From UHGV virus genome UHGV-0014911: a stretch of 40,159 nt of DNA. The stretch is one strand, 5' to 3'. The translations under genes were made by a program, and so were the position numbers. The stretch's first letter is position 1. The number at the start of each line of letters is the position of its first letter. The notes beneath the pieces are model-generated. The model made no database searches, was not told where the DNA came from, and saw nothing but the letters and a program-made list of their open reading frames with translations. Shown here piece by piece: positions 5,971 to 40,159 of this stretch. The stretch comes from a virus.

Positions 5971-6663
5971 TTAATTGTGTCGCTTAAGGGTTTGTGACTG
6001 ACTGATTAAGACCTTTCCAAAGACCATAAACCGATGTTCGTTTTCGCTGGTAATTCCCCATTCGCGGTAAATCTGATTATCAGAAATTACCAGCAGTTTA
6101 TCAGGTATCATTTGCAGTCGTTTGACGTAAATTTTATCATCAAAACCAAATACATATATACCATCCCCATCAAACTGATTGATACTGATATCAACGAAGA
6201 TGAGATCTCCTGGCTCAATGGTTGGACACATACTGTCCCCACGAACGTTGATAACTTTAATGTGATTTGCTGGTCGTCCACCAAACATCGATACAGCATT
6301 ATCAGTTCTGTATTCAATGGCATGAATCACATCAATGACATCACCGCCCTGGATAAGGCCATTTCCCGCACTGGCACTGACATCCAGCATTTCAATACGG
6401 AATACATCCTTCACCTGCGCAACATCCTCACTAATACTGTTTTTACATACAGTATTACTTTTGAGGTCTGAGGTAAAGAGATCAGCAATATCAACACCTA
6501 AGCTCCTGGCAATATTACTCAGGGCTTGTTCAGTGAATTGTTTCTGCTTACCTGTTTCGAGGCGCGAGATATTCGCCGCATCCACTCCTATTGCTTCAGC
6601 GAGATCGGCGATTTTCATGTTCTTCGCCTGGCGAAGTTGTCTGACTCGATTTCCTATGTTCAT
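5971..6663 (-). CDS. CI-like phage repressor (N-terminal XRE-type HTH plus C-terminal S24/LexA-like autopeptidase domain)
   Basis: 230 aa. HTH near the N-terminus (KIADLAEAIGVDAANISRLETGK), Ala-Gly cleavage site (SASAGNG), and Ser/Lys dyad motifs (VRGDSMCPTIEPGDLIFVD; YVKRL). Confidence 0.9.
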   Translation of the reverse strand: MNIGNRVRQLRQAKNMKIADLAEAIGVDAANISRLETGKQKQFTEQALSNIARSLGVDIADLFTSDLKSNTVCKNSISEDVAQVKDVFRIEMLDVSASAGNGLIQGGDVIDVIHAIEYRTDNAVSMFGGRPANHIKVINVRGDSMCPTIEPGDLIFVDISINQFDGDGIYVFGFDDKIYVKRLQMIPDKLLVISDNQIYREWGITSENEHRFMVFGKVLISQSQTLKRHN

Positions 6664-7571: not shown

Positions 7572-7716
7572 ATAGTTTAACGGCAAATAACCGTTTGTCG
7601 CAACAGCTGGTGGTCAGCGTCGCTGAACACCTGTTGTTACGGCATGAATGCAGATTACCAAATCACCTGGCTGTAAGTAACCACAGAGAACTTTACCTGA
7701 TTGTGGGGGGCGAGTT

Positions 7717-9766: not shown

Positions 9767-10255
9767 ATGAGTCTTTTGAATGAAGTTCAGAAATTCATTG
9801 AAGCCCATCCGGGGTGTACTTCCGGAGACATTGCGGATGCTTTTGCAGGTTACTCACGGCAGCGCGTTCTGCAGTCAGCAAGCAAGTTACGTCAGAGTGG
9901 GCGTGTGGCTCACCGTTGTGAAGGGGATACACGCAGACATTTCCCGCGCCAGACAAAGGTATCGCCGGAGGCGGAACGGCAACCAGTTCGTGAAACCAGA
10001 CCTGTGCGCAATTTCTATGTCGGCACTAACGACCCGCGGGAGATTTTATGCCTGACCCGCCAGGCTGAAGAACTGGAGTCCAGGGGCTTATACCGTCGTG
10101 CTGCAACGGTGTGGATGGCGGCATTCCGTGAAAGCCACTCCCAGCCAGAACGAAACAATTTTCTGGCGCGTCGTGAGCAGTGTTTACGGAAAAGCAGCAA
10201 GCGCGCTGTATCGGGTGATGAGTGGTATCTGTCAGGGAATTACGTGGGGGCTTAA
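9767..10255 (+). CDS. Hypothetical protein with a PerC-like C-terminal motif (possible transcriptional activator)
   Basis: 162 aa; segment RQAEELESRGLYRRAATVWMAAF resembles what I recall of PerC-family proteins. Confidence 0.35.
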   Translation: MSLLNEVQKFIEAHPGCTSGDIADAFAGYSRQRVLQSASKLRQSGRVAHRCEGDTRRHFPRQTKVSPEAERQPVRETRPVRNFYVGTNDPREILCLTRQAEELESRGLYRRAATVWMAAFRESHSQPERNNFLARREQCLRKSSKRAVSGDEWYLSGNYVGA

Positions 10256-10908
10256 TGAGTAATAAATATTGCCAGGCGCTGGTGGAACTGCGGAACAAAC
10301 CAGCCCATGAACTGAAGGAAGTGGGCGATCAGTGGCGCACGCCGGACAACATTTTCTGGGGAATTAACACCCTGTTTGGTCCGTTTGTTCTGGATCTGTT
10401 CACTGACGGTGATAACGCCAAATGTGCTGCGTATTACACGGCGGAAGACAACGCGCTGGCGCATGACTGGTCAGAACGCCTTGCGGAGCTTAAAGGTGCT
10501 GCCTTTGGAAATCCCCCATACAGCCGCGCCAGTCAGCATGAGGGGCAATACATCACCGGCATGCGTTACATCATGAAGCATGCCAGTGCCATGCGTGATA
10601 AGGGCGGGCGCTATGTTTTCCTGATCAAAGCTGCCACCAGCGAAGTGTGGTGGCCGGAAGATGCAGATCATATTGCTTTTATTCGCGGGCGTATTGGTTT
10701 TGAACTGCCTGCCTGGTTTATCCCGAAGGATGAGAAGCAGGTGCCGACAGGCGCTTTCTTCGCTGGTGCTATTGCTGTTTTCGACAAGACCTGGAAGGGA
10801 CCGGCAATCAGCTACATCGGGCGCGATGAACTTGAGGCATGTGGTGAGGCGTTTCTGGCGCAGGTTCGCCAGCAGGCGGAAAAACTGGTCAGGGAGATGG
10901 CGGCATGA
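10255..10908 (+). CDS. Phage N6-adenine DNA methyltransferase (Dam-like, orphan)
   Basis: Catalytic NPPY motif (FGNPPYS). Start placed at the ATG at 10255, overlapping the upstream stop (TAATG) with a G-rich RBS. No adjacent restriction endonuclease gene. Confidence 0.75.
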   Translation: MSNKYCQALVELRNKPAHELKEVGDQWRTPDNIFWGINTLFGPFVLDLFTDGDNAKCAAYYTAEDNALAHDWSERLAELKGAAFGNPPYSRASQHEGQYITGMRYIMKHASAMRDKGGRYVFLIKAATSEVWWPEDADHIAFIRGRIGFELPAWFIPKDEKQVPTGAFFAGAIAVFDKTWKGPAISYIGRDELEACGEAFLAQVRQQAEKLVREMAA

Positions 10909-11231
10909 CGACGTTAACTCAATGCCAGCAGCAGGTGCTGGATATGCTGATTTCTTATCAGAAAGAACGTGGCTTCCCGCCAACCAATCAGGAGGTGGCA
11001 ACCATGCTGGGATACCGTTCAGTGAATGCAGCGGTGGAGCATCTTCGCGCACTGGAGAAAAAAGGCGTCATCACGATAAAGCGTGGCGTGGCCCGGGGGA
11101 TAACGCTTCATACCGCGGTGAAGGACGACGACAGCGAGGCGGTCGGGATTATCCGCGCACTGCTTGCCGGTGAGGAAAACGCAAGGCTGCGTGCAACCCA
11201 CTGGTTACATGAGAGGGACCTGAAAGTATGA
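10905..11231 (+). CDS. Stand-alone LexA N-terminal DNA-binding-domain protein (no peptidase domain)
   Basis: 108 aa; LTQCQQQVLDMLISYQKERGFPPTNQEVATMLGYRSVNAAVEHLRALEKKGVITIKRGVARGITL aligns by eye with the LexA winged-helix domain. The ORF stops before any S24 peptidase domain. Confidence 0.65.
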   Translation: MTTLTQCQQQVLDMLISYQKERGFPPTNQEVATMLGYRSVNAAVEHLRALEKKGVITIKRGVARGITLHTAVKDDDSEAVGIIRALLAGEENARLRATHWLHERDLKV

Positions 11232-11617
11232 AGCTGATCCTGCCTTTTCCGCCCAGCGTGAACACGTACTGGCGACACCCTAACAAAGGGGCGTTTGCAG
11301 GTAAGAGCCTGATAAGCGCGGCGGGGCGCAAATTCCAGAGCGCGGCGTGCGCAGCAATAGTTGAGCAGTTACGTCGTCTGCCGAAACCAACGTCGGCACC
11401 TGCTTCAGTGGAGATCGTGTTGTTTCCTCCGGATAACCGGATCCGCGATCTGGACAACTATAACAAGGCACTGTTTGACGCCCTGACCCACGCGGGTGTG
11501 TGGGAAGACGACAGTCAGGTGAAAAGAATGCTGGTGGAGTGGGGACCGGTTATCCCGGAAGGGAAGGTCGAGATCACTATCAGTAAGTACGAGAAAACGG
11601 CGGGTGCAGCCGCCTGA
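11228..11617 (+). CDS. rusA: RusA-family Holliday junction resolvase
   Basis: 129 aa with typical RusA motifs (LPFPPSVNTYWRH ... RDLDNYNKALFDALTHAGVWEDDSQV). Confidence 0.85.
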   Translation: MKLILPFPPSVNTYWRHPNKGAFAGKSLISAAGRKFQSAACAAIVEQLRRLPKPTSAPASVEIVLFPPDNRIRDLDNYNKALFDALTHAGVWEDDSQVKRMLVEWGPVIPEGKVEITISKYEKTAGAAA

Positions 11618-11636: not shown

Positions 11637-12434
11637 ATGAATAATCTGATGGTCATTGATGGTATTGAAGTTCGTCGTGATGCTTATGGGCGTTACAGCC
11701 TGAACGATCTGCACAGGGCTGCCGGTTCTCAGGATAAGCATAAGCCTGCATTCTGGCTCCGCAATGAGCAAACCGAACGTTTAATAAGCGAGTTGCAGAT
11801 TTGCAACTCGGTCAATATAGAGCCAGTTAACGTTAGTCGTGGCGGAAATAACCAAGGGACGTATGTCTGCAAAGAACTGGTGTATGCCTATGCAATGTGG
11901 ATCAGCCCGTCATTCCATCTGAAGGTGATCCGTACTTTCGATATGGTAACCAGCGCACCGGAAAAATTATCCGGGCAGGCTGCTGACAAGATGCAGGCTG
12001 GCGTGATTCTGCTGGACTTTATGCGCCGGGAGTTAAACCTGTCTAACTCATCTGTGCTTGGGGCCTGTCAGAAACTCCAGGAGGCTGTTGGCTTACCGAA
12101 TCTGGCACCACGCTATGCCATTGATGCTCCTGCTGACGCGCCTGATGGCTCAAGTCGCCCTACGCTGTCGCTGAGTGCACTGCTGAAACAGTATGGTATC
12201 CGCCTGACGGCTAATCAGGCATATCACCAGATGGCGAAGCTGGGGATCGTTGAACAACGCGAACGATACAGCCGTACTGCGATTAACAACATCAAAAAAT
12301 TCTGGTCGCTGACAGCGAAAGGCTGCATGTTCGGCAAGAACATCACCAGTCCCGCAAATCCGCGCGAGACGCAGCCGCACTTCTTCGAATCCCGATTCCC
12401 TGAGCTGTTAAAGCTGCTCGATACCGTTCATTGA
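11637..12434 (+). CDS. KilA-N domain protein
   Basis: N-terminal KilA-N-type signature (RYSLNDLHRAAG ... KPAFWLRNEQT ... GTYVCKELVYAYAMWISPSFHLKVI). Confidence 0.7.
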   Translation: MNNLMVIDGIEVRRDAYGRYSLNDLHRAAGSQDKHKPAFWLRNEQTERLISELQICNSVNIEPVNVSRGGNNQGTYVCKELVYAYAMWISPSFHLKVIRTFDMVTSAPEKLSGQAADKMQAGVILLDFMRRELNLSNSSVLGACQKLQEAVGLPNLAPRYAIDAPADAPDGSSRPTLSLSALLKQYGIRLTANQAYHQMAKLGIVEQRERYSRTAINNIKKFWSLTAKGCMFGKNITSPANPRETQPHFFESRFPELLKLLDTVH

Positions 12435-12435
12435 G

Positions 12436-13431
12436 GTGACCGTGAGAGCACTACTGACCCCTGAAATTGCCCCGCGTATGGGGATCGTATTGTTCAGGCC
12501 AGGTTCAGAGCTGATGCCCCTGTTTATGCAGGGGCGTGTCCTGCTGGAGCCTGAGCCGGAGCGTTATTCATCTTTCGCCAGTGGTGCCGTTCCGGCGGCA
12601 TCACAACCGCTGGCGGATGATCCTGCCGTTCGGGCCGTGTTCCGCAATGAGGCAGTTATTCGTCGTGCTGGTGGCGTGGAATGTCTTGAAAGCTGGTTAC
12701 TTCGTGAAAAGGGCTGTCAGTGGCCTCATTCCGACTGGCACAGCGAGAACATGACCACAATGCGACACGCTCCGGGCGCAATCCGTCTGTGCTGGCACTG
12801 CGATAACCAGCTGCGCGATCAGTTCACGGAACGGCTGGAATCAATGGCAACGGATAACTGTGCCCGCTGGGTGTTGTCTGTTGTGCGTCGGGATCTCGGT
12901 TTTTATGACAGTCACGTTGTGACAATGCCGGAACTGTGCTGGTGGCTGATTCGTAATGACCTGGCGGATGCCTTACCGGAAAGTGCAGCCCGTAAGGCAC
13001 TGAGATTACCAAAGCCTGTTGTGCCGTCTGTCACCCGGGAAAGTGACCTTGTGCCTTCGGTTCCTGCCACCAGCATCATCCAGGATAAAGCGAAAAAGGT
13101 GCTGGCGCTGAAAGTGGATCCGGAGTCGCCGGAGTCTTTTATGTTACGCCCAAAACGTCGCCGCTGGGTTAATGAAAAGTACACGCGCTGGGTTAAGACA
13201 CAGCCGTGTGCATGTTGTGGAAAGCCCGCTGATGATCCCCACCACCTGATAGGTCACGGTCAGGGTGGAATGGGAACAAAAGCGCATGACCTTTTTGTGT
13301 TGCCTTTGTGCAGAAAGCATCACGACGAGCTGCATGCGGATACCGTGGCATTTGAAGAGAAGTATGGCTCCCAGCTGGAGCTGATATTTCGTTTTATCGA
13401 TCGTGCGCTGGCAATTGGCGTATTGGCGTAA
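12436..13431 (+). CDS. DUF968-type phage protein with C-terminal Cys/His (HNH-like) motif
   Basis: 331 aa, GTG start. C-terminus CACCGKPADDPHHLIGHGQGGMGTKAHDLFVLPLCRKHHDELH. Sits in the nin-region position upstream of Q. Confidence 0.6.
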   Translation: MTVRALLTPEIAPRMGIVLFRPGSELMPLFMQGRVLLEPEPERYSSFASGAVPAASQPLADDPAVRAVFRNEAVIRRAGGVECLESWLLREKGCQWPHSDWHSENMTTMRHAPGAIRLCWHCDNQLRDQFTERLESMATDNCARWVLSVVRRDLGFYDSHVVTMPELCWWLIRNDLADALPESAARKALRLPKPVVPSVTRESDLVPSVPATSIIQDKAKKVLALKVDPESPESFMLRPKRRRWVNEKYTRWVKTQPCACCGKPADDPHHLIGHGQGGMGTKAHDLFVLPLCRKHHDELHADTVAFEEKYGSQLELIFRFIDRALAIGVLA

Positions 13432-13444
13432 GTGGAGAACGAGC

Positions 13445-14197
13445 ATGAACCTTGAAGCCTTACCAAAATATTACTCCCCAAAATCTCCAAAATTGAGCGA
13501 TGACGCACCGGCGACAGGCTCTGGTGGTTTAACAATTACGGATGTAATGGCTGCGCAGGGGATGGTGCAGTCGAAAGCACCGCTTGGGTTTGCCTTATTC
13601 CTGGCAAAAGTTGGTGTTCAGGATCCTCAGTTTGCGATTGAAGGTCTGCTCAATTACGCGATGGCACTGGATAACCCGACATTGAACAAATTGAGTGAAG
13701 AAACCCGGCTACAGATCATTCCTTACCTTGTGAATTTTGCCTTTGCTGATTATTCCAGGTCTGCGGCAAGTAAGGCTCGCTGTGAGCATTGTGCTGGTAC
13801 TGGATTTCATGATGTATTGCGCGAGGTGGTGAAACACTCCAGAAGCGGGGAATCTGTTATCAAGGAAGAGTGGGGGAAGGAACTATGTCAGCATTGTCAT
13901 GGTAAGGGAGAAGTCAGCACAGCGTGCAGAGGGTGTAAGGGTAAAGGTATTGTCCTGGATGAAAAAAGAACCCGGCTTCATGGCACGCCTGTTTATAAGA
14001 TTTGTGGGCGTTGCAATGGAAACCGGTTTAGCCGTTTACCAACCACACTGGCGCGGAATCATGTCCAGAAGCTGGTAGCGGACCTGACTGATTATCAGTG
14101 GTACAAAGGATATGCAAATGTCATTGATAAACTGGTGACAAAGTGCTGGCAGGAGGAATCTTACGCTGAAGCACAATTGAGAAAGGTGACGAGATAA
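13445..14197 (+). CDS. Late-gene antitermination protein Q-like (zinc-binding)
   Basis: Located immediately before the late promoter/terminator and lysis genes, with multiple CxxC pairs (CEHCAGTG ... CQHCHGKG ... CRGCKGKG ... CGRCNG). Start placed at the ATG at 13445 with RBS GGAGA. Confidence 0.6.
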   Translation: MNLEALPKYYSPKSPKLSDDAPATGSGGLTITDVMAAQGMVQSKAPLGFALFLAKVGVQDPQFAIEGLLNYAMALDNPTLNKLSEETRLQIIPYLVNFAFADYSRSAASKARCEHCAGTGFHDVLREVVKHSRSGESVIKEEWGKELCQHCHGKGEVSTACRGCKGKGIVLDEKRTRLHGTPVYKICGRCNGNRFSRLPTTLARNHVQKLVADLTDYQWYKGYANVIDKLVTKCWQEESYAEAQLRKVTR

Positions 14198-39258: not shown

Positions 39259-39525
39259 TTAGAGCCCAACCTGGCGAACTGTCGGGAACTCAGACACCAG
39301 CCACATATCGGCCTCTTCAAACATATCCTCCAGCATGCGGTTCAGCTTTTCCCGATCGCTTTTGCTGGCATCGCTATTCAAGGCGTTTGCCTGCATCGGT
39401 TTCACCTTCACTTCGGCATAAGGGAAAATCTGATGCACTTGCTTCGTCAACTCAGCCAGGATGATCTCTCTGGCCCCCGCCAATCCTTCAACATTACGCT
39501 TGTCATAAACCAGTTCAACGAACAT
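39259..39525 (-). CDS. DinI-family protein (MsgA-like)
   Basis: 88 aa starting MFVELVYDKRN with an acidic C-terminal region; LexA boxes lie just upstream. Confidence 0.75.
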   Translation of the reverse strand: MFVELVYDKRNVEGLAGAREIILAELTKQVHQIFPYAEVKVKPMQANALNSDASKSDREKLNRMLEDMFEEADMWLVSEFPTVRQVGL

Positions 39526-39542: not shown

Positions 39543-39586
39543 TACTGTGATTGTATACAGTAATTTTACTGTAAGAATAAACAGTG
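39543..39586. promoter_or_regulatory. Two tandem LexA (SOS) boxes upstream of the MsgA-like gene
   Basis: TACTGTgattgtatACAGTA (39543-39562) and TACTGTaagaataaACAGTG (39567-39586); both fit CTGT-N8-ACAG. Confidence 0.7.
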
Positions 39587-39910: not shown

Positions 39911-40159
39911 TTAGTGAACAAACCACTCGTCAGCAGACTCCCGGGTATCTTTCAGAGTTTCCTGAACAAAAGTTTTAGCTGAATCTTTATCGGCGGTGCG
40001 CGTAACAGAAAGGCCATCGTTGCTGGTGGCTTTTACGATCACCTCTACATCGTCATAACGCTTACTGATGCGTCGAGTTAATTCTTCCTTTAACGCATCC
40101 ACAGCACCGTTTGGCATTTTAGTCATCTTCTCTTTGGCTATGCAGATCTCAATACGCAT
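39911..40159 (-). CDS. dinI: DinI-like DNA-damage-inducible protein
   Basis: 82 aa, MRIEICIAK ... ESADEWFVH, closely resembling E. coli DinI; the start codon sits at the last bases of the window. Confidence 0.8.

Follow-up and report, generated by a model that had tools for sequence, protein, structure and literature searches.

Could a temperate phage re-close SOS promoters with a LexA domain that RecA is unable to switch off? This question is raised by an open reading frame (ORF) of 108 amino acids (aa) in the virus genome UHGV-0014911, which was analysed as a single stretch of 40,159 nucleotides (the window). The window is a lambdoid prophage, and the ORF, called here the LexA-like gene, lies between a phage dam gene and rusA. 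The gene itself is already annotated and very common; it is its function that poses the new question. In the initial annotation the product was taken for a LexA DNA-binding domain lacking the self-cleavage domain, which could compete with host LexA and hold SOS-controlled promoters off. The analysis partly supports this interpretation. The reading we favour, tentatively and with a confidence that stays a little short of even, is that the 108-aa protein is a LexA-type DNA-binding protein, which is RecA-proof, is dimerised by its C-terminal tail and re-closes SOS-box promoters.

A LexA winged helix without the peptidase domain

The Pfam model LexA_DNA_bind (PF01726) matches residues 1-65 of the protein over all 65 model positions (E=2.9e-19, 69 bits, cut-off 23.7). 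In a phmmer search of the PDB, E. coli LexA (1lea, 3jso, 1jhh) was matched at E about 1e-15. Residues 2-70 align with E. coli LexA without a gap, therefore LexA numbering can be used directly for the 108-aa protein. The AlphaFold model calculated from the single sequence was too poor (predicted local distance difference test score, pLDDT, 58), and the model obtained with a multiple sequence alignment of 40 family sequences (pLDDT 83.8) was used instead. This model has helices at residues 6-22, 28-35 and 40-52, strands at 56-58 and 66-68, and extra helices at 75-88 and 93-103. Comparison with DNA-bound LexA (3jso) by Foldseek gave a root-mean-square deviation (rmsd) of 1.0 Å over 68 residues, with 50% identity. 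The Foldseek matches other than LexA (MarR, MntR and BlaI-type proteins) had rmsd values of 9-11 Å and were discarded as not meaningful.

Of the NCBIfam lexA equivalog model TIGR00498, only positions 1-91 of 203 were covered, and the score of 70.6 bits was below the cut-off of 110.95. A Pfam search found no match to Peptidase_S24, and the protein stops at residue 108. The 108-aa protein thus shares the winged helix (about 50% identity), the numbering and homology into the hinge with E. coli LexA, but it is phage-encoded in the nin region, it lacks the S24 peptidase/dimerisation domain with Ser119 and Lys156, and a new two-helix tail stands in place of the C-terminal domain. Having no S24 domain and a score under the cut-off, it is not a member of LexA proper. 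Because the peptidase domain is absent, the protein is immune to self-cleavage, and it is certain that RecA-stimulated self-cleavage is unable to inactivate it. The ORF is intact and does not represent a broken or frameshifted full-length lexA, since its start and stop codons overlap the neighbouring genes (ATGA on both sides). The LexA winged helix and the missing self-cleavage domain, both described in the initial annotation, were in this way borne out.

The PHROG 362 profile matches residues 1-108 over positions 1-106 of 106 (E=3.8e-59). The protein is a full member of this PF01726-only prophage family, the 'LexA family transcriptional regulator', a name assigned by PGAP in thousands of genomes.

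Conservation of the base-contacting residues

In LexA the residues Ser39, Asn41, Ala42 and Glu45 are the primary mediators of DNA contacts and perform the direct readout of CTGT (review, PMC11442139); an older source names also Glu44 as a DNA-contacting residue (PMC3091678). The list of contact residues was taken from these secondary sources. S39, N41, A42 and E45 of the 108-aa protein are identical to their LexA counterparts, as are H46, L47, R64 and G65. The recognition helix, which the initial annotation had proposed to check, is therefore not divergent at the four primary contact positions. The differences in the recognition helix region are P40 -> V and E44 -> V.

Family frequencies were counted over 21 representatives with less than 80% mutual identity. 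Position 39 is Ser in 21/21, position 41 Asn in 20/21 and position 42 Ala in 18/21, whereas position 45 is Glu in 11/21, Asp in 5/21 and another residue in 5/21. Across the family alignments S39, R64, G65 and I66 are invariant, N41 and G61 nearly so. The helix of Enterobacter-type relatives (SPNAAAEHLKAL) differs from that of LexA (SPNAAEEHLKAL) solely at position 44. Judged from these contact residues, reading of SOS boxes by the 108-aa protein is plausible.

A conserved C-terminal tail as putative dimerisation module

The two extra helices of the model form a tail (consensus EAVxLLRALLAGEExARxRAxxWLxxRG). In the AlphaFold model the block-mean pLDDT is 86-88 over residues 81-100. The tail is amphipathic with two hydrophobic stripes, and it is conserved to about 40% identity; its motif is common to PHROG 362 members that share 40-50% identity. 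A97 is invariant, and L101 is present in 39/40 family sequences. A tail-only profile retrieved nothing significant from PDB and Pfam, the best hits being sub-threshold matches to NIL domains.

In the HMMER and TIGR00498 alignments the start of the tail falls opposite LexA residues 71-91, the region of the hinge and the cleavage site (VGIIRALLAGE opposite LVGRVAAGE). Because of these alignments we think that the first tail helix probably evolved from the LexA hinge/cleavage-site segment. We infer that the tail hairpin may pair into a four-helix bundle and thereby supply the dimerisation for which LexA uses its S24 domain.

The LexA DNA-binding domain alone is a weak repressor, and it represses well once a partner module dimerises it (PMC12369361). 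The activity of the 108-aa protein therefore probably depends on the conserved tail. This modifies the notion of a bare-domain competitor of LexA put forward in the initial annotation: the architecture stands, but the tail was overlooked, and a bare domain would repress poorly. The N-terminal cleavage fragment of LexA still binds SOS boxes and represses to some extent, and has to be cleared by ClpXP, which recognises it via motifs exposed upon cleavage (PMC10584840). The fragment (residues 1-84) and the engineered LexA-DBD (DNA-binding domain) two-hybrid fusions are similar to the 108-aa protein in having the LexA DNA-binding domain without S24. Unlike the fragment, the 108-aa protein runs past the fragment end into the conserved tail, and it is the stable product of an evolved gene, not a by-product.

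Proteins of 140-350 aa with tandem LexA_DNA_bind domains and no S24 domain were found in a metagenomic library (P0130, P0131, P0148, P0150, P0156, P0159). They represent another route to two DNA-binding domains, consistent with a need for two.

In the LexA fragment the signal for ClpXP is located at the newly formed C-terminus, VAA. The proteins of several family clades (P0126, P0129, P0264, P0268, P0282 and relatives) end in -SAA, -AIA, -IVA or -ITA, which resemble ssrA-like ClpX tails; the C-termini of the E. coli clade are -LKV or -VKV. By eye, the ssrA-like endings are a possible sign of regulated instability in those clades.

Expression and the proposed mode of action

The LexA-like gene is translationally coupled inside a rightward early array between the replication gene and Q, in the order O-like, PerC-like, Dam, LexA-like, RusA, KilA-N, DUF968, Q and lysis genes. 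This nin/delayed-early location upstream of rusA/DUF968/Q is the same as in the PHROG 362 prophage family. A simple scan found no promoter-like site on the + strand upstream of the LexA-like gene within the array, and the only terminator-like hairpins were weak. Judged from the gene order, the 108-aa protein should be a delayed-early product, which is made after induction or infection and not in the resting lysogen.

In the mechanism that we favour, the winged helix would recognise CTGT-type half-sites in the manner of LexA, as suggested by contact residues that are identical and a predicted fold that is nearly so. The tail hairpin (residues 75-103) would replace S24 as dimeriser, so that two domains could occupy a CTGT-N8-ACAG box. 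Having no peptidase domain and not ending at the position of the LexA cleavage fragment, the protein would persist after RecA* has destroyed host LexA, and would re-close SOS-box promoters. It would be produced from the early lytic array (dam, LexA-like gene, rusA) and act after induction or infection. Likely targets would be the SOS genes of the host and, in the phage itself, the boxes at the dinI-like gene and within cI. The role proposed in the initial annotation has to be revised in this respect: a gene located in the early lytic array would not be holding promoters off in a resting lysogen; its product would instead close SOS promoters again once LexA is lost.

A sister clade encoded behind SOS boxes

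A sister clade of the same PHROG (phrog_362 E=8e-40) comprises proteins of 130-135 aa from Klebsiella and Enterobacter. A strong canonical SOS box lies upstream on the same strand in 29/29 sister-clade loci, within 437-640 bp in 26 of them. The 29 loci contain 12 distinct SOS-box sequences, therefore selection is favoured over shared descent as the explanation of the boxes. The order is SOS box, DinI-like gene (in most Klebsiella-type loci), orf101 and LexA-like gene, and in some loci an SOS-boxed UmuD-like gene adjoins. Locus L233 has a perfect SOS box, a UmuD-like gene (phrog_3469, E=1.6e-46), a second SOS box, a DinI-like gene (PF06183, E=1e-23), phrog_1813 (orf101), the LexA-like gene, phrog_1212 (orf67), DUF968 and a Q-like gene.

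The sister-clade LexA-like gene is predicted from these arrangements to be under LexA control. Because it sits behind an SOS box among proteins of the RecA*/LexA pathway, the LexA-like family is tied independently to the SOS response, and the link with SOS and DinI drawn in the initial annotation reappears here in a different group of phages. The layout parallels that of the window, where the DinI-like gene with its SOS boxes is at the other end of the prophage. It agrees with a phage-borne module for damping or resetting the SOS response.

The SOS islands of the nin region (L233 4829-6318; also L172, L213-L239 and L245) have some further regular members. In the sister clade orf101 (phrog_1813) always accompanies the LexA-like gene, and a 67-aa phrog_1212 ORF is located downstream; neither has a known function.

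SOS boxes in the window

Four exact CTGT-N8-ACAG cores are present in the window, compared with 0.36 expected. When CTGT/ACAG palindromes were counted over the whole window with spacings of 0-20 in both orientations, N8 was the only enriched spacing. SOS boxes were also scored with a position weight matrix (PWM), which was built from a set of E. coli SOS sites; the count of exact cores is independent of this matrix. Three strong sites were obtained, two before the dinI-like gene and one inside cI (Table 1). One exact core (7671-7686, inside the Ash/Rha-type gene) has poor flanks and spacer and a matrix score below 10. It was rejected as probably due to chance.

The dinI-like gene named in the initial annotation is a genuine DinI-family gene, and the two tandem predicted SOS boxes lie 18-61 bp upstream of it. 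A second DinI-family ORF of 82 aa (39911-40159, - strand, PF06183 E=5e-17) has its start at the final base of the window, and its promoter is outside. The window end thus carries two dinI paralogues within 900 bp.

The strongest box of the window reads TACTGTATGTAAAAACAGTA on the sense strand of cI. It is kept, or improved to TACTGTATATAAAAACAGTA, in a 93%-identical SfII-type cI allele and in a Citrobacter phage. We know of no description of a cI-internal SOS box. No promoter-like site was found at this box, which could be a LexA roadblock or an internal or antisense operator. It is also a possible site for the 108-aa protein. The box-bearing cI allele co-occurs with the LexA-like gene in 53/59 loci with enough sequence; in the reverse direction, 33/80 loci with the LexA-like gene carry the box-bearing allele. 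This co-occurrence is not telling, because a double-crossover swap of the middle segment would keep both flanks anyway. The idea that the cI-internal box is a dedicated or required partner of the 108-aa protein was rejected on account of the one-way co-occurrence, phage Eeyore (see below), and the Citrobacter phage, which has the box together with a changed recognition helix.

Distribution and selection

Proteins 96-100% identical to the 108-aa protein are annotated in SfV (orf42), SfII, SfIV, mEp460, the cdtI phage and many Stx2a/2c/2k phages. The database names of such proteins are 'LexA DNA binding domain protein', 'LexA-like protein' and, wrongly, 'SOS-response repressor and protease'. Of 5426 complete E. 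coli genomes, 1643 (about 30%) contain the PerC-Dam-LexA-like-RusA-KilA-N block, matched along at least 80% of its length. The same tail is found in relatives from Salmonella, Citrobacter, Cronobacter, Klebsiella, Enterobacter, Kosakonia, Atlantibacter and Hafnia. We found no functional or experimental study of the LexA-like prophage family; the literature mentions that were found are gene tables.

Close relatives were sampled as 80 IMG/VR loci encoding a near-identical protein. In some of these loci SOS boxes are located just after rusA, before a variant of the KilA-N gene, or near Q. Among the diverged loci L161-L172 (Citrobacter, Kosakonia, Buttiauxella, Enterobacter) RusA is directly downstream in 9/12 and DUF968 is downstream in 11/12.

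In comparisons with diverged homologues whose synonymous sites are unsaturated, the ratio of nonsynonymous to synonymous substitution rates (dN/dS) is about 0.1-0.2. The LexA-like gene has a dN that exceeds the value for the adjacent rusA by a factor of 2.5-5. In Citrobacter locus L163 the LexA-like protein, whose helix reads NTIAGH, has only 67% identity, but the RusA flanking it has 91%. These values point to a functional gene under purifying selection, which is fast-evolving and whose alleles are exchanged between phages. A few database copies are frameshifted or fused to the Dam or RusA frames (P0020, P0028, P0056, P0066, P0121, P0254) and probably come from decaying prophages or assembly errors.

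Evidence against the proposed role and rival explanations

Several observations weigh against an SOS off-switch. A strong SOS box is absent, within the sequence available per locus, from 32/80 of the close E. coli-clade loci, and most of the diverged Kosakonia, Buttiauxella and Enterobacter loci are without nearby SOS boxes. Phage Eeyore (L211 6362-6381; cI 72% identical) keeps the cI-internal box without having the LexA-like gene, which means that the box does not depend on the gene; apart from the kept box, the linker of Eeyore cI has diverged. Since the gene sits in a lytic early operon, no action is expected in a quiet lysogen. Position 44 is never Glu in the 21 representatives, though E44 is conserved in true LexA. 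The helices of several clades are altered: NAVALH in Klebsiella (E45 -> L), the NTIAGH allele in Citrobacter and NTVFIH in Salmonella. A pure LexA mimic should not tolerate such changes in hosts that have the same SOS box, and with E44 replaced throughout and E45 and A42 changed in some clades, it is not possible for every member of the family to mimic LexA exactly. Among phage LexA-domain proteins the only one that has been characterised, gp6 of GIL01, evolved its own site and activates transcription. Overall, a role as SOS modulator is plausible.

The strongest rival, which we consider unlikely though a serious possibility, is a phage-specific regulator that has drifted from SOS boxes, and, like gp6, binds an operator of its own and represses or activates phage genes. 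In that case the SOS boxes nearby would be no more than a sign that host LexA controls the operon. The precedent is GIL01 (Betatectivirus) gp6, a truncated phage LexA homologue, which activates the late promoter P3 and binds its own palindrome GaCACAnnTGTGaC (PMC6182141). Both gp6 and, as far as the gene order tells, the 108-aa protein are LexA DNA-binding domains without peptidase domain that are expressed early in the lytic programme of a temperate phage. However, gp6 has 66 aa, ends at the wing without a tail, derives from a Gram-positive LexA and is an activator, whereas the 108-aa protein keeps the host-type contact residues and the conserved tail. BLASTP of gp6 against the 108-aa protein gave no alignment at E<=100, and relatedness beyond the shared Pfam domain was rejected. 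As gp6 is tail-less and the two sequences do not align, they represent independent captures of the LexA domain.

The drifted-regulator explanation would account for helix alleles that differ between otherwise similar phages (such as L163), for the loss of E44 across the family and for a dN that exceeds that of rusA to a degree typical of specificity-diversifying regulators. Against it, the search for an operator other than the SOS type found no palindrome spacing enriched in the window besides N8, and the tightly packed array has almost no non-coding DNA for an operator in cis. The LexA contact set is intact in the E. coli and Enterobacter clades, and these phages already possess a Q antiterminator, on which the late genes here depend. 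The helix variation elsewhere and the gp6 precedent keep this model alive.

Action by protein contacts is a distinctly less probable explanation. The hinge-derived tail, with A88-G89-E90, could dock as a pseudo-substrate in the active-site cleft of host LexA, of cI or of UmuD, or in RecA*, self-cleavage would be modulated, and DNA binding would be secondary. The HMMER and TIGR00498 alignments, which continue through LexA residues 71-91, agree with this, as do the frequencies of the A-G-E residues (A88 in 23/40, G89 in 26/40 and E90 in 33/40 family sequences), the DinI-like and UmuD-like neighbours of the sister clade, which belong to the RecA*/S24 pathway, and the example of GIL01 gp7, which targets LexA by protein contact. 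But AG is not invariant and many clades are without it, the region is predicted to be helical and not a substrate strand-loop, and the conservation of S39, N41, R64 and G65 would be left unexplained. That the gene is a decaying remnant of a captured lexA with no present function is very improbable and effectively refuted by conservation: frameshifted or fused database copies (P0020, P0028, P0056, P0066) are as expected in defective prophages, but between E. coli and Klebsiella, at 40% identity, the length, the start, the tail and the key residues have all been retained, dN/dS is low, start and stop codons overlap the neighbouring genes, and the gene is present in the inducible, plaque-forming phages SfV, SfII and mEp460.

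Implications of the proposed uncleavable SOS repressor

If the RecA-proof repressor favoured here does bind to SOS boxes, a gene that is very common in prophages would serve as an SOS off-switch that RecA cannot reverse. Mutagenesis, persistence, the induction of Shiga-toxin phages and prophage competition are all governed by the SOS response, and relatives of the gene abound in Klebsiella, Salmonella, Cronobacter and Citrobacter. The protein would be a natural counterpart of the engineered design in which the LexA DNA-binding domain is joined to a foreign dimeriser, and the second phage re-use of the LexA domain beside gp6, mechanistically opposite to it. Should it prove not to bind SOS boxes, it is a further phage regulator awaiting characterisation.

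More speculatively, and with rather low confidence, enterobacterial lambdoid phages might possess an SOS-control kit, in which an uncleavable LexA substitute, in some clades with DinI-like and UmuD-like genes alongside, takes over the boxes after the destruction of host LexA. Such a kit could shut down host SOS functions, for instance error-prone polymerases, SulA, and SOS-controlled toxins or defences, and could silence the antirepressors that LexA controls in rival prophages, without stopping the lytic programme of the phage itself. Transcription of cI might also be blocked via the SOS box inside the gene. The kit would then be a widespread unrecognised determinant of the duration and strength of the SOS response in lysogens, since the module is found in about 30% of complete E. 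coli genomes.

Features of the window and of related loci

The features of the window are listed in Table 1.

Table 1. Coordinates of the LexA-like gene, its parts, the candidate SOS boxes and neighbouring genes in the 40,159-nucleotide window
Feature	Position	Strand	Basis or remark
LexA-N-terminal-domain ORF	10905..11231	+	ATG start, TGA stop (included), 108 aa; PF01726, PHROG 362
Winged helix-turn-helix, residues 1-70, homologous to LexA 1-70	10905..11114	+	phmmer alignment, AlphaFold model, Foldseek
Recognition helix region, codons 39-52, RSVNAAVEHLRAL	11019..11060	+	Alignment to LexA
C-terminal two-helix tail, residues 75-103	11127..11213	+	AlphaFold helices, family conservation; proposed dimerisation module
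SOS box TACTGTGATTGTATACAGTA, candidate target upstream of dinI-like gene	39543..39562	.	PWM score 20.4
Second tandem SOS box TACTGTAAGAATAAACAGTG, candidate target	39567..39586	.	PWM score 21.3
DinI-family gene	39259-39525	-	PF06183, E=3.4e-21
Strongest SOS box of the window, inside cI linker codons (N-T-V-C-K-N-S), candidate target	6435..6454	.	PWM score 25.6
Integrase gene	386-1621		Gene order
cI repressor gene (helix-turn-helix+S24)	5971-6663	-	Gene order
cro, cII-like gene, Ash/Rha gene	after cI		Gene order
O-like replication gene	8946-9764		Gene order
PerC-family (yfdN-like) protein gene	9767-10255		Two genes upstream of LexA-like gene
Phage Dam methyltransferase gene	10222..10908	+	PF05869, E=1.1e-45; TGA stop overlaps ATG of 108-aa ORF (ATGA)
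RusA resolvase gene	11228..11617	+	PF05866; ATG overlaps stop of 108-aa ORF (ATGA), 4-base overlap
KilA-N gene	11637-12434		19 bp after rusA, no SOS box between
Q antiterminator gene	13403-14197		Followed by lysis genes

The surroundings of the LexA-like gene vary between related phages. In some close relatives, exemplified by L072, rusA is separated by 160 bp from a KilA-N gene whose N-terminus differs, and this gap contains the SOS box TACTGTATTTATGAACAGTG (L072 10765-10784) and a hairpin, which suggests that this KilA-N variant is a LexA-controlled antirepressor-like gene. On the other side, most of the loci from E. coli, Shigella, Citrobacter and Kosakonia have a PerC-like ORF before the LexA-like gene, and Dam may or may not lie between the two.

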